Below, one piece after another: positions 1 to 14,508 of a stretch of 14,508 nucleotides of DNA. A program made the position numbers and the translations under genes. The notes below the pieces were generated by a model. The model did not search any database, was not told the origin of the DNA, and worked only from the letters and a program-made list of their open reading frames with translations. Origin of the DNA: Nitrospinota bacterium (GTDB lineage: Bacteria; UBA8248); NCBI GenBank assembly GCA_036231405.1, contig JAZAHK010000010.1, positions 1 to 14,508 of the forward strand, written 5' to 3'. Within the stretch, counting starts at the first letter, position 1. Each line of letters starts with the position of its first letter.

Positions 1-234
1 ACCATATTTATCAGCAAGTGGTTTGAACTTCGTATTATACAATTCTAATTTTTTTTCAGTTGTATAGGGTGCAAATGGTTTTCCAGGAGGTCTGCCTTCC
101 CAAGAAACCCATTCGATTTGAATATCGGGATCTTCTTCAAGAACCGGAGTTCCACCCACGGTGGCAACATAACAAAAAGGTCATGTAAAGTCTGAATATT
201 TTGTGATTATGATGGGTTCTTCTAAGATACTCAT
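1..234 (-). CDS. DsbA/FrnE-like thioredoxin-fold oxidoreductase, probable selenoprotein with UxxC motif (3' end runs off the window)
   Basis: Manual translation from ATG at 234: MSILEEPIIITKYSDFT-U(TGA 181-183)-PFCYVATVGGTPVLEEDPDIQIEWVSWEGRPPGKPFAPYTTEKKLELYNTKFKPLADKYG. This matches the FrnE/DsbA pattern (Y/F)SDxxCP(F/W)CY...I.W..(F/W)E.RP with TGA at the first Cys. RBS TAAGGAG lies 5 nt upstream of the ATG. The frame stays open for 60 codons past TGA, to position 1. Confidence 0.9.
149..168 (-). promoter_or_regulatory. Putative bacterial SECIS hairpin
   Basis: The minus strand reads GUU-G-CCACC-GUG-GGUGG-AAC, starting 13 nt after the UGA. It has a 3-bp lower stem, a one-base bulge, a 5-bp GC-rich upper stem and a loop G at +22. 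It is a GC-rich patch in AT-rich DNA, with geometry similar to bacterial SECIS elements. Confidence 0.7.
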
Positions 235-274
235 AACTTCTCCTTAGTAACATAAAAACAATAAAAGTTAATGG

Positions 275-1708
275 CTAAACTACTTCTGCTCTGTCGTGAT
301 CTATTTTTCCATATCCCCCTTCGTCTACCCAAATCCCACGACTCCTAAGATAATTGACAACTGATTTAATCTCTTCGTCATCTCCCTTGAATTCACATAC
401 CTGCCATCCTGAATTAGTATTTACTTCACCCCTTATGATATTTACCTCTAATTTGAAATTCTTTCCAAGTTCCCATAATACAGGAAGACTTACTTGTGTG
501 GATGGAAAAGTGAGGACAAATCTTCTAGTTTCGCTTGGGATGTCAAATCCGTGGATACCTATTTCCTTTTTCAGTTCAATACGATTAAGAAAATTGTGAA
601 CTATATGCGTAAGTTTGTCATATTGAACTAAAAACGCATCATGTCCATAAGTAGATTCAACGGTATGGAGTTCAACTTTTTTATTTATTTCCTGCATAGT
701 TTCAGCTATTTCAGTACTGCACTCAGTCGGGAAAAGCCAGTCAGAAATAAAACTAATTAAACAACAATTAGTATTTAATGTTTCTAGTGCATCCTTCAAG
801 GAAGGAGCATTAGATTTCATGTCATAAAGATCCATCATTCTGGAAAGGTAAATGTAGGAGTTTGCATCAAAACGATTTGAAAATTTTTCTCCTTGATAAT
901 CTAGATATCTTTCTACTTCATATCGCGCGGTTACATCTTCAAGAAGATTTTCATTTTCTTTAGCCCTTCTTCCAAACTTTTCCCACATTATCCTGTTGCT
1001 TAAATAAGTTATGTGCGCAATCATGCGTGCAGTCATAAGTCCTTTGAAAGGATTTTTTGATTCATCATAATCGCCATTATTCCAATTTTGATCAGTCATG
1101 ATTGCGTGACGACCAATCTTGTTCCATGCGATTCCCATAGGGTTGAGATAAGCAGCGGCAGCAACTGGGATGATCGATTCACAGAAATCACTATATCGAA
1201 TACCCCATTCAAGAGTTTGCATTCCAGCAAGAGAACCACCGATGACAGTCTTAAGACCTTTTACTCCGAGTGATTGCATAGTTTTCATTTGCAATCGAAC
1301 CGTATCCTCTACGGTTACTACAGGAAAGTTCATTCCATACGGTTTTCCGCTTGAAGGATTAATTGATGTTGGTCCTGTTGTTCCAGAACATCCTCCTAGA
1401 TTATTTGTGCAAATTATGTAATATTTTCTAGTGTCAAGTGCTTTTCCAGGACCAATCATGGGGTCCCACCAACCTGGGCGTTCATCTTCTTTACTATTAA
1501 ATCCAGCAGCATGTGCATCCCCTGTAAGGGCATGAATGACTAGTATTGCGTTATCTTTATTTTCATTTAGGTTGCCGTAGGCTTCGTAAGCAACCTGCAA
1601 CTTCTCTAATGTATGGCCGGAGGATGTTTCGAAGGGTTCTTCGAAATTGACATACTCAGTTTCAACGAATTCTTGAGATTGTTTTTCATTTTGTTTGTTC
1701 ATAATCAT
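275..1708 (-). CDS. metX: Homoserine O-acetyltransferase (MetX family) with C-terminal NIL domain
   Basis: Motifs HALTGDAH, GWWDPMIGPGKALDT, NNLGGCSGTTGP, nucleophile elbow GGSLAGMQ, RFDANSY, SDWLFP and YGHDAFL. An extra ~70-aa NIL-like domain lies at about 320-526. The start could be ATG 1708 or 1702. Confidence 0.93.
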   Translation of the reverse strand: MIMNKQNEKQSQEFVETEYVNFEEPFETSSGHTLEKLQVAYEAYGNLNENKDNAILVIHALTGDAHAAGFNSKEDERPGWWDPMIGPGKALDTRKYYIICTNNLGGCSGTTGPTSINPSSGKPYGMNFPVVTVEDTVRLQMKTMQSLGVKGLKTVIGGSLAGMQTLEWGIRYSDFCESIIPVAAAAYLNPMGIAWNKIGRHAIMTDQNWNNGDYDESKNPFKGLMTARMIAHITYLSNRIMWEKFGRRAKENENLLEDVTARYEVERYLDYQGEKFSNRFDANSYIYLSRMMDLYDMKSNAPSLKDALETLNTNCCLISFISDWLFPTECSTEIAETMQEINKKVELHTVESTYGHDAFLVQYDKLTHIVHNFLNRIELKKEIGIHGFDIPSETRRFVLTFPSTQVSLPVLWELGKNFKLEVNIIRGEVNTNSGWQVCEFKGDDEEIKSVVNYLRSRGIWVDEGGYGKIDHDRAEVV

Positions 1709-1819
1709 CTCTTTGAAGAATAACTTGTCTCATACATAATAAAATTATATTTTAACGATCTTTTAAAGCTTTGGTAATATAAAATTACATTTTTATCATT
1801 TTTTTATTCTGAGAATTAA

Positions 1820-2593
1820 ATGATAGTTTCTAGTTTTGATCAAAGTATAAGATTAACTACACAGCATGATCATGCTCGTGTTGCAGGTACGATAGCGAGG
1901 AGTTGGAAGGGGAATGAAATCATTCCAGAGGTTGATGACCTTCTTAAGCGGTCAACATTTTTTGCAATCGACAACCATGATATCGGTTGGTATGAATTAG
2001 ATTTAAATCCTATCCTAGATCGAAAAATTCAAATACCATCTAGTTTTTTTTCTACTACTTCTGAGGACGCAGTTGAACTATGGAACAATAGTATCGAAAT
2101 ATGCCAAAGGTTTTCGGTTTTTTCTGGGTTTTTAGTGAGTAATCATTTTTATATGCTTGCAAAAGTAGGGATGGATAATGCTCCTGCATCACAGTATAAA
2201 ACATTAAATAATTTTGTGATTCAGGAAGAAAAACGCCAAAGGGAGTTAAAAAAAGGTATGAAAGAATTTGAAAACCTTCATGCAGAAAGTATTGGAGAAC
2301 TTTTAAGGTTATCTGATACCCTTTCACTTTTTCTCTGTGGGGCTCCAGAGATAACCCCAAAGCCACTCGTAGTTAGTTCTCTTTTGAAGGGTTCTATTAG
2401 AGTGAAAGTTTTTGAGAATTTCGAGAAAATGGAATTATCTCCATGGCCTTTTAAGAATGAATCTCTAATAGTTCATGTTCCTTCATTAACGATTCCAAGA
2501 ATGGATTTTAAAAATGATGATGATTTGCAAGATGCAATTTCACTTGGGAAGGTTAGTATCTATGAGACGGTTATAGTTCCTATGACACCTTAG
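1820..2593 (+). CDS. DUF3891-family protein (H...HD motif, putative metal-binding)
   Basis: TQHDHARVAGTIARSW...AIDNHDIGWYELD, LVSNH, D.LSLFLC and a C-terminal PWPF match the DUF3891 pattern as I recall it. Confidence 0.75.
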   Translation: MIVSSFDQSIRLTTQHDHARVAGTIARSWKGNEIIPEVDDLLKRSTFFAIDNHDIGWYELDLNPILDRKIQIPSSFFSTTSEDAVELWNNSIEICQRFSVFSGFLVSNHFYMLAKVGMDNAPASQYKTLNNFVIQEEKRQRELKKGMKEFENLHAESIGELLRLSDTLSLFLCGAPEITPKPLVVSSLLKGSIRVKVFENFEKMELSPWPFKNESLIVHVPSLTIPRMDFKNDDDLQDAISLGKVSIYETVIVPMTP

Positions 2594-2607
2594 TGTTTGG
2601 ATTACAT

Positions 2608-3009
2608 ATGGTATCAAAAATAGCAAAAATAAAAGTGGTGGCTGGGGTAATCTTCAACCAAGGAAAGATATTGATAACAAAACGCCCTTACAATGTTCAC
2701 CAGGGAGGGAAGTGGGAATTCCCAGGTGGAAAAGTAAATTTAGACGAAGCGGAGGAGCAAGCTTTAAAGAGAGAATTATTTGAGGAACTTTCTGTAGACG
2801 TCGATGTGGCTAATCTTATTTTAGAAACCAATCATTTTTATGAAAATTTAGAGGTGAATTTGTTGTTTTATGAATGTACAATTAATTCTAACAAGGTAAC
2901 CAATTTATCAGTTTTACAGCATAAATGGATCACACTTCCCGAACTTTTAGATTATTCTTTTCCTCCTGCAAATGAAAAACTAATATCTTTGTTACTTGAA
3001 AGATTCTAG
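2608..3009 (+). CDS. mutT: MutT-like NUDIX hydrolase (8-oxo-dGTP diphosphatase)
   Basis: Nudix box GGKVNLDEAEEQALKRELFEEL, plus HQGGKWEFPGG and C-terminal FPPAN typical of MutT. The start is ATG 2608 or GTG 2593, which overlaps the upstream stop. Confidence 0.88.
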   Translation: MVSKIAKIKVVAGVIFNQGKILITKRPYNVHQGGKWEFPGGKVNLDEAEEQALKRELFEELSVDVDVANLILETNHFYENLEVNLLFYECTINSNKVTNLSVLQHKWITLPELLDYSFPPANEKLISLLLERF

Positions 3010-3707
3010 CTCGATGTTTTTTTAATCGCACTAATTACCAACCTTCTTCCATAAAGCGATTGAGGGGAACCACTCATTTTCCAAAAATTCTTTTCCTCTT
3101 CGCTTTTGCTTTTTTTAAATTTAGATTTGCAATAAAATTTTTGTGGTATTCCAAAAATTTTTTCAATGAAATGTTTAGGTTTTTTTTCGTCTACTTCGTG
3201 TATTCTAACATCTTCAAATTTTGCTATTCTTAAGAATGTGTAAAGCCAGGGGAACGACCACGGCATTATGTGCATATGTGCACCAGGTTTCATCCTTCCT
3301 ATTAAATTCGAAAAACTTGGGAAGAAACCACAAAAAAAATATTTCAATTTTGCAAGTGGATACCAAATATTTGGAGTGGTGACGATGAGAACACCTTCAT
3401 TTTCAAGGTGTTTGAAGATAGATTCTAGAAAAAGTGTTGGGTTTCCTATGTGTTCTATGCCTTCGCATGAAACTATCGCATCATATTTTGGCAGTTCTTC
3501 AGGGATGCCAAGTTCTAGGTTGGCGGAATAAAAATTCCTATAGCCCTCTGGTTTTTCTTCAAACAAATCTATCCCATCTATTTCATCTGTTGAAGTTTGT
3601 CTTGATTTTAACCATCCATTTCCAGATGGTGCATCTAGTATTGTAGATGGTTTTTTCTCTTCCAAAATTTTCAAGACAGTTGGCATATATGATTTTGTTG
3701 GGAACAT
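3006..3707 (-). CDS. Class I SAM-dependent methyltransferase
   Basis: Motif I variant ILDAPSGNG, GID, YDAIVSCEGIEH and GVLIVTTPN. Confidence 0.85.
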   Translation of the reverse strand: MFPTKSYMPTVLKILEEKKPSTILDAPSGNGWLKSRQTSTDEIDGIDLFEEKPEGYRNFYSANLELGIPEELPKYDAIVSCEGIEHIGNPTLFLESIFKHLENEGVLIVTTPNIWYPLAKLKYFFCGFFPSFSNLIGRMKPGAHMHIMPWSFPWLYTFLRIAKFEDVRIHEVDEKKPKHFIEKIFGIPQKFYCKSKFKKSKSEEEKNFWKMSGSPQSLYGRRLVISAIKKTSS

Positions 3708-3753
3708 AAAAAAACCTAAAGGAATTCTGTATCAGAAGTTAAAAACTTTTATT

Positions 3754-5445
3754 TTATGCATCCGTCACACAACCTTCGGAAGCAGATGAGACACATTTCG
3801 CGTATTTATATAGTGTGCCTTTTGTAAACTTGAGGGGTGGTTCAGTCCATTCCGCTCTTCTTTTTTTAATTTCTTCATCTGATATCTTTAACTCCATTAC
3901 TCTTTTAATTGCATCTATTAATATGGGGTCTCCATCTTCTATCAAAGCAATCAATCCACCAGCCTGTGCTTCAGGAGTAACGTGTCCCACAACAAATCCG
4001 TGGGTTCCTCCAGAGAATCGGCCATCAGTTATCAGGGCCAAATCATTTCCTAATCCGGCGCCCATTATAGCGGAAGTGACAGTGAGCATTTCCCTCATGC
4101 CAGGACCTCCTTTGGGGCCTTCGTATCTTATAATGACTACGTCACCTTTATTAATTGAATTTTGTTCTAGTCCTTTCAAGGCATCTTCTTCAGAGTCAAA
4201 AACCCTAGCAGGTCCTTCAAATTTTTCGCCTTCTTTTCCCGTAATTTTCGCGACTGCCCCTTCTTCTGCCAAGTTTCCATAAAGGATCTGTATATGCCCC
4301 GAACTTTTAATAGGTTCACTGGCGGGAAAGATTATTTTTTGTCCTTTGGATAATCCAGGTAAACTGTCAACATTTTCTGCGAGTGTTTTTCCCGTTACGG
4401 TTAGACAGTTCCCTTCTAAGAATCCTTCTTCAAGGAGCAATTTTTGTACTCCAGGAACTCCACCGACATTGTGAAGGTCTTCCATTACGTATTTTCCGCT
4501 TGGTTTAAGATCCGCTATATAAGGTGTTTTATCGCTTATCCTCTGAAAGTCATCAATAGTGAGTTCGACATTAATAGCTTTTGCAATTGCGATCATATGC
4601 ATCACAGCGTTAGTCGAACCACCTAGAGCCATAATTACTGTTATGGCATTTTCGAAGGCTTGTTTAGTCATGATGTGACTGGGCAAAATATTTTTTTCAA
4701 GAAGATTATACATAGCGTCACCAATATTTGAGCATTCTATCTTTTTGTCTTCGCTCATAGCAGGGTTCGATGCACTAAAAGGGAGACTCATTCCAAGAGA
4801 TTCAATTGCAGAGGACATTGTATTCGCAGTATACATACCACCGCAGGCACCACCACTTGGGCAAGAATGGCGGATAATTTTGTCTAAATCATTTCTCTCA
4901 ATTTTACCGCTGAAAAATTCTCCATATGCTTGGAAGGCAGAAACTACATCTAGTTTTTTCCCGTCTAAGGATCCAGGGCTAATTGTTCCTCCATATACCA
5001 TCAAACTGGGTCTGTTTAATCTTGCCATTGCGATCAGAGATCCGGGCATATTTTTATCACATCCTGGTAAAGTAACTAGGCCATCGTACCACTGTGCACT
5101 TACTACGGTTTCAATGGAATCTGCGATTATATCTCTTGATTGGAGAGAATATTTCATTCCTTCTGTTCCCATAGAAATCCCGTCACTCACCCCTATAGTA
5201 TTGAAAATTAACCCTATCATTTTTTTATTTTCAGAAATGCTATGTTTTATTATTTCTGCCAGTCGGTTAAGATGAAAATTGCATGAATTTCCTTCCCACC
5301 ACATACTAGCTATGCCAATTTGTGGATTTTTCATATCTGTTTCATCTAATCCAGCTCCATAAAGCATAGCTTGCGAAGCAGCCTGGGATGCGGGTTCAGT
5401 CACTCTTTTGCTGTAAATATTTAGCTTTTTCCCCCCGTTTTCCAT
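3754..5445 (-). CDS. ilvD: Dihydroxy-acid dehydratase
   Basis: Motifs [60 protein letters not shown] and [11 protein letters not shown]. Confidence 0.97.
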
Positions 5446-5468
5446 TCTCTAATCTCCAAAAAAATTGT

Positions 5469-6161
5469 TTATCTAGAAATTTTATGTTTGGTCACAGTTC
5501 CATTACATTTTGCCCATGGACCCTTGAAACGTTTTGTCTCTAATGGCTGAGAACATTCATTCAATGGGTCTGAGCCCGATTTTACCTCTAAACCATCAGA
5601 ATATCCATCTAAATCGGTATCGCGATTGGTAGGGTCTAACCTGAGAATGACTTCATATCCGTCATTTAAAAAATCCTTGTCTGTATCCCTTAAAACGGGG
5701 TTTGTCCGAAATTTTTTGATCTCGTCTTTGTCCGACAGACCATCGCCGTCAGTATCTGCTTTCTTAGGATCTGTAAAGAACTTTTTTTCTTCGTCAATAT
5801 CCATTAATCCATCACCGTCTCTGTCTACACAGTTTTTTCTGTAAAGTTCCTGTTTTGCGATTTTTATTCTTCTCAGGGATTTGTTGATGAGATCTATGAT
5901 GAGATTCTCGTTCTCTTCGTCTTTCATGCTAGCAATTTGAAAAATCAGGAAACGAATCATTTGAAATTTAACGGGGACACAGAGTGCGAGATTGCCTTCA
6001 GTATCGAGTTTTACAAACACTTCCTTTAATAATTGATGTTCCTTGTATATAGAATCCTTTAAAGATTTAATTCTCTTTTCTGTGACCTCAGGTGTAAGAA
6101 AACGTGTGCAAGAAACTATGGATAAAATAAACATCGTTGTTATGCAAAATATTCGAAACAT
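5469..6161 (-). CDS. Putative lipoprotein with thrombospondin type-3-like Ca-binding repeats
   Basis: Hydrophobic N-terminus ending in lipobox-like IVSC (Cys18), then four DxDxDGxxDxxE...(D/N)P repeats. Confidence 0.75.
   Translation of the reverse strand: MFRIFCITTMFILSIVSCTRFLTPEVTEKRIKSLKDSIYKEHQLLKEVFVKLDTEGNLALCVPVKFQMIRFLIFQIASMKDEENENLIIDLINKSLRRIKIAKQELYRKNCVDRDGDGLMDIDEEKKFFTDPKKADTDGDGLSDKDEIKKFRTNPVLRDTDKDFLNDGYEVILRLDPTNRDTDLDGYSDGLEVKSGSDPLNECSQPLETKRFKGPWAKCNGTVTKHKISR
5562..5825 (-). repeat. Four tandem 22-23 aa Ca-binding repeats (protein level)
   Basis: DRDGDGLMDIDE, DTDGDGLSDKDE, DTDKDFLNDGYE and DTDLDGYSDGLE begin at residues 113, 136, 159 and 181. Confidence 0.85.
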
Positions 6162-6370
6162 TTTTTGCCCAATAAATAAATAAACTTTAATTGTCCAATA
6201 ATATTTGATTCAAAATAAGTGATTGATCTTATTTGATTAATATATTCCAAAATAGTTTTTGTGTTGTCTTTTTTGCCATACTTTTATCCATCACTCAAAA
6301 TATTAGAATTTAACTTCAAGTTTTGCTATTGTACTTGATATTAATAACTTTTACTTCTTAGGATTTGAAG

Positions 6371-7303
6371 ATGTCTAAACACGAACTTATAGCCGATCAT
6401 ACTAATATTCATTGGGGATTTTACGATGCTTCTTTGAGTCCTGTTCTCACTATTGATGATGGCGATACAGTTGTATTTTATACAGAGTCCGGAAGAAAAG
6501 ATCTCGTTTCAATTCTAGAGGAAAAAGTTTCTTCGCAGTTGAGGAATATTTTTTTGCATCATGAACAAGGTTTTGGTGCCCATATTATGACAGGTCCTGT
6601 TTTTATTAATGGTGCTAAAGAAGGTGATGTTTTGGAAGTCAATATAAAAGATATTCAAGTACGTTATGACTGGGGTTACAATGGGTTCCGACCACTTGTA
6701 GGCGGTCTTCCTGAAGATTTTCCCTATTCCAGAGTTGTTGTCATAGATGTAGACAAGGATAAAGGAATTGCAGATTGGGGAGCAGGAGTTAAAGTGCCTA
6801 TAAGGCCTTTCTTTGGGAATTTTGGAGTTGCCCCTCCAAGATCATATGGAAAAGTACCATCAACTCCACCAGCTGCCTGGGGAGGGAATACTGATAACAA
6901 GGAGTTTGTACCGGGAACTAAAATATTTTTCCCGATTTTCAATGACGGGGCTTTGTTTTCAATCGGCGATGGTCATGGTTGTCAAGGTGATGGAGAGGCT
7001 AATATTAATGGTATAGAAATGGGTTTGGTAGGAACCTTTGAGTTTAAGGTGAGAAAGGATTTAACGATTAACCTCCCTATTGCTCAAACAGAAACGCATC
7101 ATATTTTTATGGGATTTGACCCGATTCTAGATAACGCAGCGAAAATAGCACTTCGTGAAACTATTGATTTTTTGGTTAATTCTAAAGAAATGCATCCTGA
7201 TGATGCTTATACTTTGTGTAGTCTTGCGGTAGACCTTCGGGTAACCCAGATAGTGAATGGATTCAAAGGGGTGCATGCTATGCTGCCCAAGTCAATTTTC
7301 TAA
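6371..7303 (+). CDS. Acetamidase/formamidase family protein, paralog 1
   Basis: HIMTGPV..GA..GDVLEV, PFFGNFGVAP, GGNTD, FSIGDGHGCQGDGE and DAYTLCSLAVDLRVTQIVNG..GVH. AGGA 7 nt before ATG 6371 favours this start over TTG 6365. Confidence 0.92.
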   Translation: MSKHELIADHTNIHWGFYDASLSPVLTIDDGDTVVFYTESGRKDLVSILEEKVSSQLRNIFLHHEQGFGAHIMTGPVFINGAKEGDVLEVNIKDIQVRYDWGYNGFRPLVGGLPEDFPYSRVVVIDVDKDKGIADWGAGVKVPIRPFFGNFGVAPPRSYGKVPSTPPAAWGGNTDNKEFVPGTKIFFPIFNDGALFSIGDGHGCQGDGEANINGIEMGLVGTFEFKVRKDLTINLPIAQTETHHIFMGFDPILDNAAKIALRETIDFLVNSKEMHPDDAYTLCSLAVDLRVTQIVNGFKGVHAMLPKSIF

Positions 7304-7306
7304 TTT

Positions 7307-8257
7307 TTGGAGTTCGGTATCCATAAAATAATTGCCAATTCAAGTTCAGTCCAGTGGGGCTATTATGATCCTGAAGCAAAACCTTTGTTCAATGTTTCTT
7401 CTGGAGAGATTGTAGAAGTCTTTACAGAACCGGGAATGAGGGAAATTGACTCTGAAATGAAAGAGATGGTTTCTTCTGAACTACTAGATATTGTTGAGAA
7501 CGGAAAACGTATACTCGGTGGGCATATCCTGAATGGCCCAATAGGGATAAAAGATGCGTTGGCAGGAGATGTGCTGGAAGTAAAGATGTTAGAAATTCGT
7601 CCTAGGTATAATTGGGGTTTCAACAGGTTTCGTCCATTGTATGGTGGATTGCCTGAAGACTTTCCTTATGAAAGAAGGATTGTTATTGATATAGATAAGG
7701 AAAGTAATGTTTGCCATTGGAATACTGAAGTTGCCATTCCTCTTTCTCCGTTTTTTGGAAATATGGGAGTTGCGCCACCTTTAAAAATGGGGAAAGTGCC
7801 GTCTACTGTTCCGGGTCCCTGGGGTGGTAATATGGATAATAAAGAATTCACGGTGGGAACGAGTGTTTTTTTTCCAGTATTTATCGACGGTGCGCAGTTC
7901 TCAATTGGTGACGGTCATGGTTGTCAGGGAGATGGAGAAAGCTGTCTTTCCGCTTTGGAATGCGGTTTGGTCGGGAAGGTACAATTTTTTCTTCACAAAA
8001 ATTCTAATCTAGACATTCCCATGGCAGAATCTTCTACTGATTTTATTTTCATGGGTTTTGATCCTATCTTAGATAATGCGGTTAAGGATGTTATAAGGGA
8101 GACAATAAAATTTTTAGATGAACGTTTTCAAATACCGAAAGATGACGCATATACATTGTGCAGTCTTTCGTTGAACTTGCGTGTCACCCAAATTGTGAAT
8201 GGGACAAAAGGAGTACATGGTCTTTTGTCTAAATCTTTATTTAAGGATCTGACCTAG
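7307..8257 (+). CDS. Acetamidase/formamidase family protein, paralog 2
   Basis: Same motifs (GGNMD, GDGHGCQGDGE, ALE, TQIVNG..GVH). TTG start 3 nt after the paralog 1 stop. Confidence 0.9.
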   Translation: MEFGIHKIIANSSSVQWGYYDPEAKPLFNVSSGEIVEVFTEPGMREIDSEMKEMVSSELLDIVENGKRILGGHILNGPIGIKDALAGDVLEVKMLEIRPRYNWGFNRFRPLYGGLPEDFPYERRIVIDIDKESNVCHWNTEVAIPLSPFFGNMGVAPPLKMGKVPSTVPGPWGGNMDNKEFTVGTSVFFPVFIDGAQFSIGDGHGCQGDGESCLSALECGLVGKVQFFLHKNSNLDIPMAESSTDFIFMGFDPILDNAVKDVIRETIKFLDERFQIPKDDAYTLCSLSLNLRVTQIVNGTKGVHGLLSKSLFKDLT

Positions 8258-8258
8258 T

Positions 8259-9191
8259 ATGGAATATGAACTATTTGCGAAACCAGACAATGTGAATCGT
8301 GGTTTTTATGATGCCAGTTCTTCACCAGTTCTTTCTATTCAGTCAGGAGACACTCTCCGAGTTCATACAGAATCTGGTTTAGAAGAGCATTTAGAACTCG
8401 TTGGAGAACGTGCCTCGGATGAGTTTCGTGCAATTATAGAAAAACTTCCAATTGGACCTGGCCCTCACATCCTGATAGGTCCTATTGCTATTGAGGATGC
8501 TTCACCGGGGGATGTACTTGAAGTGCAACTGGAAGATATTTCTCCTAGATATGATTGGGGATACAATGGGTTTAGACCACTCATGGGTGGATTGCCTGAA
8601 GATTTTCCTTATCGCAAAACGGTAATTGTTGAGATCGACAAAGAACTTGGAGTAGCGGATTGGGGAGCAGGAATTCAAGTTCCATTATCCCCTTATTTTG
8701 GCAATTTTGGAGTTGCTCCCCCAGCCTCTATGGGCAAAATTGGCAGTTATCCACCTGGTGCTTGGGGTGGGAATATGGATAACAAAGAATTAGTTTCAGG
8801 TTCTAAAGTGTTTTTCCCTGTTTTTAATGAAAAAGCTCTTTTCTCAATAGGCGATGGTCATGGGTGTCAGGGGGATGGAGAAGTTTGTCTTACTGCCTTG
8901 GAGTGTGCGATGTCAGGGACGTTGAAATTTAAACTCCATAAAGATTTGTTTCTAATTCTCCCAAGAGCCGAAACTCCTACTCACCATATCTTCATGGGTT
9001 TTGATCCGCTTATTGATAATGCCGTGAAAATTGCACTTAGGGAGACGATAAAGTTTATGAGGAGTGAATACGATATTCATCGTGACGATGGATACACAAT
9101 ATGTAGTTTGGCAGTTGATCTAAGAGTGACCCAGATAGTCAACGGAGTGAAAGGGGTGCATGCTATGCTCCCTAAAAATATTTTTGTTTAA
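8259..9191 (+). CDS. Acetamidase/formamidase family protein, paralog 3
   Basis: GPHILIGPI, GGNMD, GDGHGCQGDGEVCLTALE and TQIVNGVKGVH. ATG 1 nt after the paralog 2 stop. Confidence 0.92.
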   Translation: MEYELFAKPDNVNRGFYDASSSPVLSIQSGDTLRVHTESGLEEHLELVGERASDEFRAIIEKLPIGPGPHILIGPIAIEDASPGDVLEVQLEDISPRYDWGYNGFRPLMGGLPEDFPYRKTVIVEIDKELGVADWGAGIQVPLSPYFGNFGVAPPASMGKIGSYPPGAWGGNMDNKELVSGSKVFFPVFNEKALFSIGDGHGCQGDGEVCLTALECAMSGTLKFKLHKDLFLILPRAETPTHHIFMGFDPLIDNAVKIALRETIKFMRSEYDIHRDDGYTICSLAVDLRVTQIVNGVKGVHAMLPKNIFV

Positions 9192-9220
9192 TTAATTTTA
9201 ATAGCTTTATGGAGAATTTT

Positions 9221-10345
9221 ATGACCGGTGACGAAAATAATCTGCGTCCAATTGGTTTGGCTATAGTTGGTTGCGGTAAAATTGGAAGAATCAGGGGGGA
9301 ATTTGCGCGGACTTATCCAGGTGTTGAGTGGATTGGTTTATGCGATGTCAACGAGAAAGTGGGTCGTCAATTGGCTGACGACGTAAATGCAGATTTTTAT
9401 ACAAATGACTACAAGGAATTATTGAATCGTCCAGAAGTGACTGCAACTATCATTGCTACAGATGAAACCGAACATGTCGACCCTACAATGCTTTCTATAG
9501 AGAAAAAGCACGACTTATTTATTGAGAAACCTCTGGCTACAAATGCAAAAGAATCACAGATGATTCTCGATGCAATTGAAGAGAATGATATTGATGCTGT
9601 TGTGGGTTACACACAGCGTTTTAGAAGAAGATTTCTTGTAGCAAAAGAAAAAGTTAGGACAGGACAGCTTGGTGAGGTGACTACTGTTGTTACTAGGGCG
9701 TTTATGAATCGACTCGTTCCTATTGCTACAGTCGAAAAAACCGAATATCGAGCCAAACTTACCCCTATGGTCGTTTCTGGTACGCATAGTCTAGATATTT
9801 GTATGTGGCTGATGGAAGGGAAGAAACCCGTTGAGGTCTATTCGAAAACTACAGATAAAACACTGGGAGCATCTTATGGCACGAAGGATGCAACACTTGG
9901 AATTTTCACATTTGACGATGGTACCATCTGGAGTATGAACATTAGTTGGGCGTTGCCGATTGTATGGCCAGGTTCTGTTTATAGTCTCGAAATAGGAATA
10001 GTGGGAACAGAAGGTGTCTTGACGATAGATGACACTCACAGAGATCTTGTTCTTGCGACAGAGAATCCGCAGCCTGCAGGTTATACTCCCGAAGTGAAAA
10101 GAAATGTCGATTTTCTCACTAGTTACCCCCCTGGTGATGTGGTTTTGAATCAGTTGTGGGGTCCTATGAGAGAGGAAACTAATGCATGGTTTGCGAGGGT
10201 ACATTCAGGTTTGGATACCCCTCACGCCACAGCAGAAGACGGTCATAATAATTTGATTCTTACCATGGCGATGGATCTTTCTTCCAAATTAGGGAAAGCC
10301 TTGCCTTTGCCTGTGGATTTAGAAGATCTAGAACAACTTAATTAA
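9221..10345 (+). CDS. Gfo/Idh/MocA family NAD(P)-dependent oxidoreductase
   Basis: Rossmann motif IVGCGKIG, EKPLA, VGYTQRF and GTHSLD. GGAG at 9211-9214 favours ATG 9221 over 9209. Confidence 0.92.
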   Translation: MTGDENNLRPIGLAIVGCGKIGRIRGEFARTYPGVEWIGLCDVNEKVGRQLADDVNADFYTNDYKELLNRPEVTATIIATDETEHVDPTMLSIEKKHDLFIEKPLATNAKESQMILDAIEENDIDAVVGYTQRFRRRFLVAKEKVRTGQLGEVTTVVTRAFMNRLVPIATVEKTEYRAKLTPMVVSGTHSLDICMWLMEGKKPVEVYSKTTDKTLGASYGTKDATLGIFTFDDGTIWSMNISWALPIVWPGSVYSLEIGIVGTEGVLTIDDTHRDLVLATENPQPAGYTPEVKRNVDFLTSYPPGDVVLNQLWGPMREETNAWFARVHSGLDTPHATAEDGHNNLILTMAMDLSSKLGKALPLPVDLEDLEQLN

Positions 10346-10375
10346 AAATCATTATCGAATGAGGAGAGTTTAAGA

Positions 10376-10783
10376 ATGCCTTTTTATCAGATTGCCGAAA
10401 TGGTCAAAAACAATAGTGAAATCAACCCTTCTATCACAGCAAAAAGTGTCCCTGGTGAATATATGAAAGCAGGTATTGTAACAAAACCGGAAGGGGAGGG
10501 TCCTCCTCTCCATATGCATCCTAACGAAGAGCAGTTCACATTGATTCTGGAAGGTAATCTTCATTATATATTGGGAGATGAAGATAAAATTGTTGGTCCT
10601 GGAGATATGATTCATATTCCGCGTTTTACAAATCATAGAAGCAGGGCAGTTAATGGAGAGGCTACTTTTTTTACTGTGAAAAGCCCGGCAGGTTCTGGAG
10701 AACTCGATCAGGATTATAATATGGTGGATGATGCAGAAGACGCTGAAAATCTTTATCCAGGTGAAAAACAAAGCGATAATTAA
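10376..10783 (+). CDS. Cupin domain protein
   Basis: Cupin motif 1 HMHPNEEQF...LEG and motif 2 GDMIHIPRFTNH. RBS GAGGAG at 10361-10366. Confidence 0.9.
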   Translation: MPFYQIAEMVKNNSEINPSITAKSVPGEYMKAGIVTKPEGEGPPLHMHPNEEQFTLILEGNLHYILGDEDKIVGPGDMIHIPRFTNHRSRAVNGEATFFTVKSPAGSGELDQDYNMVDDAEDAENLYPGEKQSDN

Positions 10784-10795
10784 AGGGAAAAATGT

Positions 10796-11245
10796 ATGGG
10801 CGTTCGTTTTTTTGAAGACTTTGAGGTTGGTCAAACTTTTACTGCTGGTGGAATTGAACTAACTCAAGATGAAATCATGGAATTTGCCCGTAATTACGAT
10901 CCGCAGCCTTTTCATGTGGATATAGATTATGCAGAAAAGTTTCAGTATGGAGGAATTATTGCCAGTGGATTTCATACCATGGCGGTTACGATGCGTTTAT
11001 TTGTAGATACAGGATTTTTGGGGACTTCTAGCCTTGGTTCCCCTGGAATAGAGTCGATCAAATGGCCGAATCCTGTAAGGCCTGGCGATGTGCTATCCCT
11101 CAGTGTTAGTCTTGTAAGTAAACGTGTTTCAAAGTCTGACCCTTCGCGAGGTGTGATGATTCTGGATTATACAACTACAAATCAGGAAGAAGAAGTGAAA
11201 CTCAAGATGACTGGTGCGGTACTTATGAAATGCAGTCCCAGTTAA
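10796..11245 (+). CDS. MaoC/NodN-like (R)-enoyl-CoA hydratase/dehydratase
   Basis: FFEDFEVGQ, hydratase motif YDPQPFHVD, IIASGFHT and WPNPVRPGD. Confidence 0.9.
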   Translation: MGVRFFEDFEVGQTFTAGGIELTQDEIMEFARNYDPQPFHVDIDYAEKFQYGGIIASGFHTMAVTMRLFVDTGFLGTSSLGSPGIESIKWPNPVRPGDVLSLSVSLVSKRVSKSDPSRGVMILDYTTTNQEEEVKLKMTGAVLMKCSPS

Positions 11246-11269
11246 ATTTTAACCGAAAGGGTTAGGAAA

Positions 11270-11431
11270 ATGGGTTTGGATGAAATAAAGGAAGAAATAA
11301 AAAATTATCCTACTCCTATAGCTGGATGTGATGTGTATTTTAACTGGCTACTCGAAGAAAGAGATAGACTTCTTTCTGGAATAGAAGAAGATGAGATTGT
11401 AAAAAGAGATCATCTGACAGGTAAGTTTTGA
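11270..11431 (+). CDS. Small (53 aa) hypothetical protein with YPTPIAGCD motif, absent from the ORF track
   Basis: MGLDEIKEEIKNYPTPIAGCDVYFNWLLEERDRLLSGIEEDEIVKRDHLTGKF*. AGGA lies immediately upstream. It fills the gap between maoC and cbiX and overlaps the cbiX 3' end by 22 nt. Confidence 0.7.
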   Translation: MGLDEIKEEIKNYPTPIAGCDVYFNWLLEERDRLLSGIEEDEIVKRDHLTGKF

Positions 11432-11835
11432 CTAGATTCTTTAAAACCTTCTTCTATTCTCTGTGAAACGATATCTATAATCTTTTCGTGGAATCCAAGA
11501 TGCGGTCCTAGGTGAATTTTCACATTAGGATTTCTGGAGGCACCTATATCTACAAGATTTGGAAGATCTTTCCTAACATGATTCCCCATGTGTAGAAAGT
11601 AGGGTGTCAAAAGAATCTCTTCTGCTCCTTTGTTTGCACAAGAATCGATACATTTAGGAATAGAAGGATCATTAATTTCCAAAAAAGCAGCAGTCACAAT
11701 TCTGTCCGGCCATTTTTTCTGGATGATATCTACTACCTTGTACATATCGCGGTTAGCACCTTCTGCCCGGCTTCCATGGCCAAGAAGAATAATTGCTTTT
11801 AGAGAGTTTGAGGAATTTTCGGCTATGCCATGCAT
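11410..11835 (-). CDS. cbiX: Short single-domain sirohydrochlorin chelatase (CbiX/SirB family)
   Basis: LLGHGSR, AFLEINDPSI, PYFLHMGNHVRKDLP and HLGFH. GAGGAG/AAGGTGA lies upstream, and the start overlaps the reductase 3' end. Confidence 0.9.
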   Translation of the reverse strand: MHGIAENSSNSLKAIILLGHGSRAEGANRDMYKVVDIIQKKWPDRIVTAAFLEINDPSIPKCIDSCANKGAEEILLTPYFLHMGNHVRKDLPNLVDIGASRNPNVKIHLGPHLGFHEKIIDIVSQRIEEGFKESSQNLPVR

Positions 11836-13631
11836 TCACCTTCTCCTCTTTCAAGAACGTAGCTTTCTTTCTTTCCCCAGTCTACAAAAATTTCTTCTTT
11901 TTCTTCTTCATTAAATTGGCCGTTAATATGAAATTCCTGAAGAAGTTTTTCAAAGGACTGATTGCCCATTCTTTCAAAGAAATCGTTGAACTTTTCGTTC
12001 TCATTCCTGTTTTCTTTGTAGAAGGTGAGTATGCGTTTCACGGCATTGGGAACTCTTTTAGCAGGGATTCTTATTCTTAAACGTTCTCCAAGTTTAGTTA
12101 AACCGTTAGTGTTTTGATGCTGTCCACCTATAAATAATTCATAGGCAGGTAGCATTTTGCCTCCAGAACGAAGAGTGCCTCCGTGAAACCCGATATTCGC
12201 AATGTGATGTTGCCCGCAGGAGTTCGGACAGCCGCTCATTTTAATCTGGAGTTCTTTCGTTAAGGTGTCTTCTATCGCTTCTTCTTCCAAAGTGTTTCGT
12301 ATGGCAGTTGCCAGACCCATTGAGGAAGTAATTCCTAGTTTACAGGAATCTGTTCCAGGACAAGAGACAATATCCGTAATTTCTTGGGCTCCATTACTGG
12401 AGAGACCTATTTTTTTGAGTTCGACCCATACCCTTTTTAAATCATTCTTTTTAATCCACCTTAAGACTATATTTTGCTGGTAACTTGTTCTCGCCCTGCT
12501 TCCAGCATATTTTCTGGAAATTTCAGCCAGAGCAAAAAATTGATCTGCAGTGATATCACCAAGGGGAAGTTTTATTTCAGCAGCATAAAATCCAGATTGA
12601 AGTTGCTCCCTTACATTTGTAGATTCCCATGCAGTATATTCGTCATGATCTCCATTCAACTCTACTTCGTCTGCAGTACTAAGAAATTCTTCGTCTGTGT
12701 CTAAATCTTCGTACTCGTTATCTTCCCATAAATATTCATCAATATTGATTGGATTTGTGGCCCATTTCCCTGTCAACTCTTTTTCTACTCTTTCTCTTAA
12801 TCCGTCTATTCCTATCCAGCCTACGAGAAATTTAATTCTTGCCTTAAATCTGCTTTTTCTAAGTTCTTTTGATTTGTTGAATACTCTTACTATCGCTTCG
12901 CTTACGCGCAGAAACTCGGTTGCAGGAATAAACTCGTACAGTGTTTCTGCCACGCGGGGAAACGTTGCCAGTCCTCCTCCTACGAGCATTTTAAAACCCT
13001 TAGTGACGACACCTTCTATCTCTTTAATGACGGGGATAAATCCAATATCGTGTATCCCTGCAACGACACAATCAGAACTGCAACTTGAAAAAGCAGCTTT
13101 AAATTTCCTAGGTAGGTTTTGTATGAAATCTTTTCTAGCAAAATAACGCGCAAAAGCACCTGCGTAAGGAGTAGAATCGAAAACCTGATCTTTACAAACA
13201 CCTGCAAATGCACAGCCGGTAACATTTCTAACAGTATTTCCACATGCTTCCCGAGTGGTTAGACCAACTTTCGCAATCAAACGCATTAAGTCGGCAGCAT
13301 CTTCTAGCCTTATAAAGTGAAACTGGAAGTTTTCTCTTGTTGTTACATGGCCCTTTTTGAGAGGGGTATAGTCGCGGGCAACTACTCCGAGAGTTTCAAG
13401 CTGATCTGCAGTCATTCCGCCAAAAGGAATTTTGATTCTAAACATTTGAGAATCAGCTTGTCTTTGCCCATAGACTCCTCTCAAAAGTCTCCACCCTGTG
13501 AATTCGTTTTCGGCAAGTTCACCGTCATGAAACTTCGTAACTTCTGTTTCGAAGTCATCAAACTCTTCTTCTAAGATAGGGATAACAGGTAAAGAAACGT
13601 TTGCTGATGATTTTGAATGACTTGCACACAT
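11823..13631 (-). CDS. Siroheme-[4Fe-4S] sulfite/nitrite reductase hemoprotein (Sir/NirA/CysI family)
   Basis: GVYGQRQ, RIKIPFG, HVTTRENFQFH, ACGNTVRNV and LPRKFK, with cofactor ligands SCPGTDSC and SGCPNSCGQH. RBS TAGGAG 6 nt before ATG 13631 supports this start rather than 13691. Confidence 0.93.
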   Translation of the reverse strand: MCASHSKSSANVSLPVIPILEEEFDDFETEVTKFHDGELAENEFTGWRLLRGVYGQRQADSQMFRIKIPFGGMTADQLETLGVVARDYTPLKKGHVTTRENFQFHFIRLEDAADLMRLIAKVGLTTREACGNTVRNVTGCAFAGVCKDQVFDSTPYAGAFARYFARKDFIQNLPRKFKAAFSSCSSDCVVAGIHDIGFIPVIKEIEGVVTKGFKMLVGGGLATFPRVAETLYEFIPATEFLRVSEAIVRVFNKSKELRKSRFKARIKFLVGWIGIDGLRERVEKELTGKWATNPINIDEYLWEDNEYEDLDTDEEFLSTADEVELNGDHDEYTAWESTNVREQLQSGFYAAEIKLPLGDITADQFFALAEISRKYAGSRARTSYQQNIVLRWIKKNDLKRVWVELKKIGLSSNGAQEITDIVSCPGTDSCKLGITSSMGLATAIRNTLEEEAIEDTLTKELQIKMSGCPNSCGQHHIANIGFHGGTLRSGGKMLPAYELFIGGQHQNTNGLTKLGERLRIRIPAKRVPNAVKRILTFYKENRNENEKFNDFFERMGNQSFEKLLQEFHINGQFNEEEKEEIFVDWGKKESYVLERGEGECMA

Positions 13632-13659
13632 TTTTAGTCTCCTATACACAATTGCGTAA

Positions 13660-14508
13660 CTATATCGATAATTGCAATTTTTTATTTTCAAGAAGAGGGT
13701 TGGATTTATGAGATTCTGACTGAAAAGAATTAGAATCTGTTTTTCTGCCTTTTTTAAACCAATCTAGTTTTTCGCTAAGTTTTGCTACTTCTCCTACTAC
13801 AAAAATTGCAGGAGAAGAAATTTCTTCTCTTTCTGCGAGTTTTACAGCGTTGCCCAATGTGTCTGTGAAGTTCCTCTGATTCTCTTTTGTGGCATTTTCA
13901 ACAATAGCAATTGTTGTTTCTTTCGCCATCCCGTTTTTGATAAGTGTAAAAGAAATACGACCAATAGAACGTGCAGACATTAAAAAGACTAGAGTTCCTT
14001 TATCTTTTGCTAAATGGATGTAATCGAGATTGTCGGATTCTTTATTTGGGTCTTCATGGCCAGTAATGAATGTTACGCTTGAAGAAATTCCTCTGTGTGT
14101 TACAGGTATACCAGCAAAAGCAGGTGCAGAGATTGCGGAGGTTACACCTGGAACAATTTCAAAAGGAATATTTTCTTTTTTTAGTTCTAGTGCTTCCTCT
14201 CCACCTCTGCCAAAAACAAAGGGGTCGCCACCTTTGAGACGAACAATAGTTTTATTGTCTTTTGCAAAATCTATCATTAGTTTATTGATATTGTTCTGTG
14301 AAATTGTGTGATGGTCAGCAGATTTTCCTGCATAAATAAGTTCACAATCTGAATGACAGAAATTAAGAATTTCAGGATTAAGCAATTTGTCGTAAATTAC
14401 GACGTCCGCAATTCTTAAAAGTTTTAATGCCTTTACTGTAATCAGATCAGGATCTCCAGGTCCTGCACCTACTATATAGACCACACCTTTTGTATGTTCT
14501 TCTCTCAT
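13660..14508 (-). CDS. cobA: Uroporphyrinogen-III C-methyltransferase (SUMT)
   Basis: VGAGPGDPDLITVKA, YDKL, RLKGGDPFVFGRGGEE, VPGVTSA, GIPVTHRG and ITGH. The ATG is at the window edge, so the true start cannot be verified. Confidence 0.95.
   Translation of the reverse strand: MREEHTKGVVYIVGAGPGDPDLITVKALKLLRIADVVIYDKLLNPEILNFCHSDCELIYAGKSADHHTISQNNINKLMIDFAKDNKTIVRLKGGDPFVFGRGGEEALELKKENIPFEIVPGVTSAISAPAFAGIPVTHRGISSSVTFITGHEDPNKESDNLDYIHLAKDKGTLVFLMSARSIGRISFTLIKNGMAKETTIAIVENATKENQRNFTDTLGNAVKLAEREEISSPAIFVVGEVAKLSEKLDWFKKGRKTDSNSFQSESHKSNPLLENKKLQLSI

Follow-up and report, generated by a model that had tools for sequence, protein, structure and literature searches.

The window analysed here is a stretch of 14,508 nt from a Nitrospinota bacterium (GenBank assembly GCA_036231405.1, contig JAZAHK010000010.1, positions 1 to 14,508). 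Its first bases hold, on the minus strand, the 5' part of a gene for a FrnE/DsbA-like thiol-disulfide oxidoreductase whose frame is crossed at codon 18 by a TGA. The in-frame TGA is real. From its position and surroundings we infer that it very probably encodes selenocysteine (Sec, U) at the active site of the enzyme, which would act in the cytoplasm. Translated with TGA as U, the gene reads MSILEEPIIITKYSDFT-U-PFCYVATVGG...IEWVSWEGRPP, whereas under translation table 11 the frame ends at the TGA (183-181). A preliminary description of this DNA had reported a strong ribosome-binding site, a TGA at codon 18, a gene missed by the list of open reading frames (ORFs) and family-like sequence continuing in frame. 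All of this holds: AAGGAG (245-240) precedes the start codon, no other stop occurs over the 78 codons to window base 1, where the window edge cuts the gene, and the only ORF listed for the region is one of 53 codons starting at GTG 159.

The TGA is present in every close relative that covers the position. A search of longer proteins gave 20 relatives among 51 candidates, and an alignment of 18 of them (P0013 and P0017 were dropped) served for a scan of genomes, one per species, with the patterns EWVSWEGR and R[DN]R[IV]Y[KRQ]ARW. Both patterns lie downstream of the TGA, so that the scan did not select for it. The patterns matched 78 stretches, of which 45 were confirmed, giving 44 loci (L001-L044). 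The N-terminal region is contained in 43 of these (L042 starts at residue 57), and in all 43 codon 18 is TGA, never TGG, TGC or TGT, in the context KYSD[FY]T-TGA-P[FY]CY[VI]ATVGG. The loci come from Nitrospinaceae/Nitrospinota metagenome-assembled genomes (MAGs), two Tectomicrobia MAGs and many other bacterial MAGs, with GC contents of 35-73% (38% in the window). The closest ones, L001-L003, share 83-88% nucleotide identity with the window over 234 nt. Beyond the TGA the frame stays open for 190-198 codons to a normal stop in 41 loci and runs to the contig end in L044; orthologues thus have a length of 17+1+190-198 codons.

Active site, fold and family

Among more distant proteins the TGA column is occupied by Cys. 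An exhaustive search of 1.84 billion representative proteins returned 3337 matches at E <= 0.001, eight of them at E <= 1e-30. Of these, seven (59-93% identity) are fragmentary or truncated at the 5' end and do not reach residue 18, and the eighth is a multi-domain protein with 30% identity; the best matches that do cover residue 18 have at most 35% identity. From the best 150 of the 3337 matches, a distant set was formed of 29 single-stretch matches of ~190-220 aa that start at query residue 13 or earlier. In this set, the U18 column contains Cys in 28 sequences and Ser in one (P0041), and the C21 column contains Cys in 27, as it does in all 42 distinct sequences of the Sec clade. The comparison of homologues proposed in the preliminary description thus yields TGA in 43/43 close loci and Cys in 28/29 distant proteins. 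Judged by alignment, the TGA column is that of the N-terminal catalytic Cys of CP(F/W)C, as had been claimed. Three distant relatives of 425-1163 aa (P0027, P0032 and P0035) are built of 2-5 tandem complete DSBA domains, an architecture that is not seen in the window.

The 78-aa fragment in the window matches the Pfam DSBA profile (PF01323) over positions 2-72 of 191 (E 1.8e-4, 21.8 bits), and 19 of the 20 database relatives carry a precomputed PF01323 assignment. The full-length orthologue at L001:9048-9680 (P0022; 210 codons, read with TGA as U) has Deinococcus radiodurans FrnE (5cnw/5cp1) as its best match among PDB sequences (E 7.6e-12), with the TGA residue aligned to the first Cys of the FrnE CPWC motif (5cnw). 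In tblastn, the L001 orthologue is matched at 92% by P0002, the first sequence of the query alignment, which is itself 95% identical to the window fragment. P0022 was modelled with AlphaFold2 from a 50-row alignment consisting of P0022, the read-through translations of 20 of the 43 loci and the 29 distant homologues (mean predicted local distance difference test score 94.9, predicted template modelling score 0.90). Residue 18 of the model lies between strand 8-14 and helix 19-33, the canonical place of CxxC in the thioredoxin fold; the active site, U-P-F-C in the window and U-P-[FY]-C across all loci, precedes this helix. All sequences of both alignments (30 and 50 sequences) have P173, within G-I-P-S-F, and from its place before strand 174-177 of the model this residue is predicted to be the cis-Pro of the thioredoxin-fold loop. 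In a Foldseek search of the PDB, the top five structures are FrnE entries (template modelling score, TM, 0.79-0.81). They are followed by HCCA isomerases, kappa-class glutathione S-transferases (GSTs) and cytosolic DsbM, with periplasmic DsbAs lower (TM 0.5-0.6). The DsbA/FrnE-like identity given in the preliminary description is therefore upheld by the Pfam match and by FrnE being best by both sequence and fold (TM 0.81), which places the protein in the FrnE subfamily of the DsbA family (PF01323, COG2761, cd03024).

Periplasmic DsbA (for example that of E. coli or Pseudomonas; PDB 3h93 among others) has the same thioredoxin fold with an inserted helical domain and the same position of CxxC at the N-terminus of helix 1. 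However, the protein described here is much nearer to the FrnE/HCCA-isomerase/kappa-GST branch, and the features of a periplasmic oxidase working as a DsbA/DsbB pair are not seen. There is no visible signal peptide, the N-terminus MSILEEP leading straight into strand 1 at residue 8, and no DsbB-type gene occurs among the neighbours scanned (56 of the 78 ORFs of nine loci, the gene's own pieces and opposite-strand overlaps being left out). A cytoplasmic location is suggested by the lack of a visible signal peptide. The closest relative of solved structure is D. radiodurans FrnE (DR_0659; 5cnw, 5co3, 5xwh), described as a cytoplasmic disulfide reductase/isomerase of the DsbA family (PMC8945050), which also lacks a signal peptide and has a CP(W/F)C-type site at the same place. 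It differs in having Cys where the protein here would have Sec, with an identity of only 22-23%, and in its C-terminal CxxxxC tail, which serves to regenerate the active site. The orthologues lack this tail: their C-terminal helix 188-209 contains no Cys and is Lys/Glu-rich instead. CxxxxC is described as present in many but not all FrnE proteins and optional for the subfamily, and a tail-less C-terminus like the one here is reported for D. maricopensis and S. roseofulvus FrnE (PMC8945050). By likeness to FrnE, the protein may act as a reductase/isomerase. In such a reaction, U18, placed at the N-terminus of helix 1, would attack substrate disulfides with its selenolate and Cys21 would resolve the mixed selenenylsulfide.

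A SECIS-like hairpin within the coding sequence

Just downstream of the TGA, codons 24-28 (GCC ACC GTN GGT GGN) form a hairpin that resembles a selenocysteine insertion sequence (SECIS), with a CCACC/GGUGG stem and a GUN loop. In the window, the upper stem pairs CCACC (164-160) with GGUGG (156-152) around the loop GUG (159-157), which starts 21 nt after the TGA, and the lower pairs are G168-C149 and U167-A150. The third codon positions in the stem are frozen across the 42 distinct sequences (GCC in 42/42, ACC in 41/42, GGT in 42/42), and in the lone ACT the pairing survives as G.U. At other Gly positions of the gene, GGT is seldom used (1/42, 3/42 and 1/42). The loop codon, in contrast to those of the stem, is free: GTG occurs 26 times, GTC six, GTA five and GTT five, which amounts to 1.56 bits, and other invariant four-fold codons have 1.3-1.8 bits. 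The peptide A-T-V-G-G is invariant in the Sec clade and is not conserved in the Cys homologues, which fits an RNA constraint on the coding sequence. The hairpin may resemble the E. coli fdhF element, with its loop G-U ~23-24 nt from the U of UGA and a bulged base below the upper stem.

For the 39 distinct 65-nt stretches (five loci with identical stretches being omitted), RNAalifold predicts exactly this 5-bp hairpin as consensus and nothing else. When G19-C33 and the lower pairs 16-35 and 17-34 are included, base 18 being bulged, 96.8% of 312 cells pair, as against 32-64% on sliding 3' partners. The minimum free energy (MFE) over 48 nt is -7.5 kcal/mol or lower in 38 of the 39 sequences (-8.8 in the window, -6.3 in L003). 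In the bSECISearch model of the bacterial SECIS (bSECIS), as summarised in a figure legend of a recent review, the loop has 3-9 nt, the upper stem 4-16 bp and the MFE is <= -7.5 kcal/mol. The same legend places a G within the first two loop positions, mostly as GG or GU, and the loop 16-37 nt from the UGA (PMC13188914, Fig. 2 legend). The hairpin described here, with its 3-nt loop starting with G-U, its 5-6 bp upper stem and its 21-nt spacing, satisfies every constraint of this published model. Ribosomes would start at ATG 234, and at the UGA (183-181) a SelB-type elongation factor carrying Sec-tRNA(Sec) would be recruited by the hairpin 21 nt downstream, to which SelB presumably binds. Sec would then be inserted in place of termination and translation would go on for ~192 more codons.

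Other readings of the TGA

A number of observations weigh against Sec as the encoded residue. Some concern the hairpin. No statistical covariation is seen (four of eight pairs are invariant, there is one compensatory cell, and 66-110 of 500 shuffles reach the observed values) and the RNAalifold covariation term is -0.02, although such tests are uninformative here because the pairs of the hairpin are nearly invariant. The hairpin is present in the 48-nt MFE structure of 28 of the 39 sequences and missing from that of the other 11. Folded alone, positions 110-190 of the window are unremarkable (z -1.54, with 17 of 200 shuffles equally good), and Rfam gave no SECIS or other family, either for window positions 1-400 at E <= 10 or for the whole window at the gathering score. 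Other points concern the Sec machinery. The tRNAs that ARAGORN detected in the 44 loci are tRNA-Val and tRNA-Ala, with no tRNA-Sec among them. When the window and the 44 loci (727,645 bases) were searched by tblastn for E. coli K-12 SelA, SelB and SelD, the TypA/BipA GTPase of L002 and L003 gave the only matches. From a sequence this short (14.5 kb of the organism) little would be expected. A crude scan of the window and L001-L003 for TGA-interrupted ORFs with redox motifs revealed no second selenoprotein gene: L001-L003 gave only the FrnE/DsbA-like gene and two antisense artefacts, and the window copy, truncated by the edge, is below the length cut. The fragment, being just 78 aa long, also scores 21.8 with Pfam DSBA, short of the gathering score of 25.6, and has no match in NCBIfam. 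Finally, the downstream frameshifts and stops named in the preliminary description as signs of pseudogenisation are absent from the 41 loci with a normal stop and from L044, but in L005, a contig of a Nitrospinota MAG, codon 57 is an additional TAA (L005:5827-5829), where the others have Tyr. The rest of L005 is intact, and its TAA is either an assembly error or a recent inactivation.

The alternative that survives best is that the UGA is read as an ordinary amino acid, either as Cys delivered by a mischarged tRNA(Sec) or as Trp or Cys by near-cognate suppression stimulated by the hairpin. It draws on the fact that the identity of the inserted residue is something that we infer, on the lack of Sec machinery in the loci and window just described, and on the database entry P0002, which has W at the codon, though this is merely the pipeline's choice of genetic code. 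However, the hairpin fits the SelB-type bSECIS model down to the G-U at the first loop positions and the 21-nt spacing, and the position is that of the redox-active Cys in homologues, a classic site for Sec. If Cys were meant, some of the 43 genomes would be expected to have TGC or TGT, and none does. Furthermore, L004 is a contig of the MAG FO_M_Nitrospinota_01, which with 54 selenoprotein genes ranks among the ten richest bacteria in Table 2 of BSepDB (PMC13326102); at least one MAG carrying the same gene is thus a documented Sec user. Insertion of an ordinary residue is accordingly regarded as distinctly unlikely, and the organism of the window presumably decodes Sec.

Less probable still is that the functional product is the shorter protein found in annotations, started from an internal GTG or ATG (GTG 159-157 in the window), the 17 upstream codons being an untranslated leader. 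Database practice is on its side, as is the 53-codon ORF of the window. Of the 20 database relatives, 18 begin after the CxxC (six at V/M-ATVGG, seven at MGG and five further downstream), while P0002 shows W in place of the TGA, the N-terminus of P0013 is unrelated, and CxxC occurs in none. The earlier expectation that pipelines would miss the protein or call it a pseudogene is therefore not what is found; 18 of the 20 relatives are annotated as 5'-truncated ORFs instead. The GTG taken as start by gene callers (157-159, minus strand) makes up the apical loop of the SECIS-like hairpin. As a start it is not conserved, only 26 of 42 sequences having GTG at codon 26 and 16 lacking the internal GTG, and a product shortened in this way would have neither the first beta strand nor any of the active site. 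In contrast, the window has AAGGAG and ATG at codon 1, and most of the 43 loci show a GGAG-type motif ahead of their aligned start codon, ATG or GTG. The supposed leader also evolves as protein. Nei-Gojobori ratios of nonsynonymous to synonymous differences (pN/pS) in the AT-rich clade (the window and L001-L003, six pairs) are 0.063 upstream of the TGA (codons 2-17) and 0.074 downstream of it (codons 19-78). The 861 pairs among the 42 distinct sequences give 0.162 for codons 2-17 and 0.181 for codons 19-56. Purifying selection is the same on either side of the TGA. Synonymous change upstream is free: at codons such as P7, S14 and T17 the amino acid is kept with three or four synonymous codons in use. 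An untranslated leader is very improbable.

That the TGA is a sequencing or assembly error, a pseudogenising mutation or a sense codon (table 4 or 25) is scarcely credible and effectively refuted by the same TGA in 43/43 independent assemblies, a frame that is intact in 41 loci and to the contig end in one (L005 being the exception), Trp codons that are always TGG (codons 42 and 45 in 42/42 distinct sequences) and TGA stops elsewhere. Its support is that TGA is a rare stop in the AT-rich clade, where it ends 3 of 51 long non-overlapping ORFs, and that just one of 13 genes in the window ends with it; in the other, GC-rich loci it ends 175 of 445, a set in which GC-rich DNA may have given rise to some spurious ORFs. 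Under table 11 none of the 13 other complete genes in the window is interrupted, and those that were checked, among them ilvD and metX, cover almost the whole length of their family profiles. Six of the 13 end in TAG, six in TAA and one, cbiX (11410-11835, minus strand), in TGA; reading through the latter yields only low-complexity sequence. TGA is otherwise a stop in these genomes and the code is not reassigned, in agreement with the preliminary description, which had relied on cbiX.

Genomic context and significance

The coordinates of the gene and of its upstream neighbour are collected in Table 1. The neighbour, a metX gene fused to a C-terminal NIL domain, is co-oriented with the FrnE-like gene and ends at TAG 277-275, 40 nt before its ATG, and the two probably share one transcript.

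Table 1. The FrnE/DsbA-like gene with its putative Sec codon, associated elements and upstream neighbour (window positions)
Feature	Position	Strand	Basis
FrnE/DsbA-like thiol-disulfide oxidoreductase gene, 5' part (codons 1-78 of ~210), predicted active site U-P-F-C	1..234	-	translation, Pfam DSBA, orthologue L001:9048-9680, FrnE alignment, AlphaFold2 model, Foldseek
Shine-Dalgarno AAGGAG	240..245	-	sequence; 5-nt spacer to ATG 234-232
In-frame TGA, codon 18, proposed Sec codon at the attacking-Cys position of CxxC	181..183	-	43/43 loci, homologue column, FrnE alignment, model
TGT, Cys21, resolving Cys of UxxC	172..174	-	Cys in 42/42 distinct sequences and 27/29 distant homologues
SECIS-like hairpin within the coding sequence	149..168	-	RNAalifold consensus, pair counts, frozen synonymous sites, energies, published bSECIS constraints
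metX (homoserine O-acetyltransferase) fused to NIL domain	275..1708	-	NCBIfam NF001209 (E 6.6e-142), Pfam NIL

The same arrangement, metX-NIL directly upstream on the same strand, is found in 35 of the 43 loci, over the full range of 35-73% GC, with the tblastn match ending 44-126 nt before the start. In three loci metX lies further off (0.8-6.7 kb), and in five (L010, L027, L036, L038 and L043) it is not in the available flank. Further out, past metX, come a DUF3891 gene and a Nudix gene of the MutT type, and the downstream side often has a RidA gene; the block [MutT][DUF3891] <-> [metX-NIL][Sec-FrnE-like] is widely conserved. Three MAGs have two copies of the gene (L023 and L036, L038 and L039, L015 and L043). 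The second copy at L036 (U-P-Y-C, GIPILEQ) has no metX; upstream of it is an ORF with two CMD (AhpD-like) domains and downstream an IS1595-type transposase. The start region of L036 recurs in L038 and L043, which likewise lack metX upstream and are likely equivalents of that locus. CMD proteins are listed as a selenoprotein family in an earlier survey (PMC1088965). A candidate SAM-II riboswitch in the metX leader (1783-1819, minus strand) scores 15 bits, where the gathering score is 44, with an E-value of 2, and was discarded for lack of significance.

The rest of the window contains further genes of note. Three tandem FmdA_AmdA (acetamidase/formamidase) paralogues of 312, 316 and 310 aa, followed by a GFO/IDH/MocA oxidoreductase, occupy positions 6365-9191 on the plus strand. 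An overlapping string on the minus strand at 11410-14508 comprises cobA (uroporphyrinogen-III methyltransferase), a NirA/sulfite-reductase-type hemoprotein of 622 aa and a small CbiX-type chelatase; it looks like a unit for siroheme synthesis and sulfite/nitrite reduction. At 10370-10834, a minus-strand ORF of 154 codons has no family match, and an overlapping plus-strand ORF (10376-10783) matches Cupin_2 (E 7.2e-14), which makes the plus strand the probable location of the real gene. A 230-aa protein with bacterial thrombospondin type-3 (TSP3) repeats is encoded at 5469-6161 on the minus strand.

The gene is a further member of an established family of UxxC DsbA-like selenoproteins, and Sec-containing DsbA-like proteins are not themselves new, as the preliminary description had already acknowledged. 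In 2005, a study of the Sargasso Sea metagenome described a new selenoprotein family named 'DsbA-like protein' (COG2761, UxxC, nine sequences), for which a SECIS was predicted (PMC1088965). A DsbA-like selenoprotein is also listed in Anaeromyxobacter dehalogenans, Desulfovibrio desulfuricans and Desulfotomaculum reducens (PMC1794560). A 2026 review includes 'DsbA-like protein form 1' (PF01323, UxxC) and describes the functions of such proteins as largely uncharacterised (PMC13188914). As described in these passages, form 1 agrees with the gene here in its assignment to PF01323/COG2761, its UxxC with Sec at the N-terminal redox position, its stem-loop just past the UGA with a small, G-containing apical loop and its widespread Cys homologues. 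The published form 1 examples (AACY01178397, NIP15863.1) are likened to it by description and may belong to the same clade. Features seen here and absent from the cited form 1 passages are a Nitrospinota/Tectomicrobia-type clade without a close Cys orthologue, the invariant A-T-V-G-G hairpin and metX-NIL upstream. The position of metX-NIL directly upstream is one new detail. A full-text literature search for Nitrospin* together with selenoprotein or selenocysteine returned only BSepDB and incidental mentions, the supplements of surveys lying outside the search.

The finding has consequences for annotation and for the study of Sec insertion. Mis-annotation is systematic, in that close database relatives are recorded without the first beta strand and the catalytic motif; consequently, function prediction, structure modelling and selenoproteome counts are biased for these marine and groundwater lineages. 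The gene adds indirect evidence of Sec use in an AT-rich, Nitrospinaceae-labelled lineage. Its signature of frozen synonymous sites points to a compact SECIS variant amenable to bench experiments, in which a CCACC/GGUGG stem carries a GUN triloop.

A wider and rather doubtful proposal is that these genes form an obligately Sec-using FrnE clade, in which the hairpin fixes A-T-V-G-G and which is functionally coupled to methionine biosynthesis through its pairing with metX-NIL. The obligate use of Sec is suggested because no Cys orthologue occurs in the 43 genomes, across 35-73% GC, and no match above 35% identity in the 1.8-billion library covers the active site. If this proposal is true, a selenol-based reductase could keep MetX or a sulfur/homocysteine intermediate reduced, or place the pathway under redox control. 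For a selenoprotein family whose role is described as uncharacterised (PMC13188914), the conserved metX-NIL neighbour provides a first functional lead.

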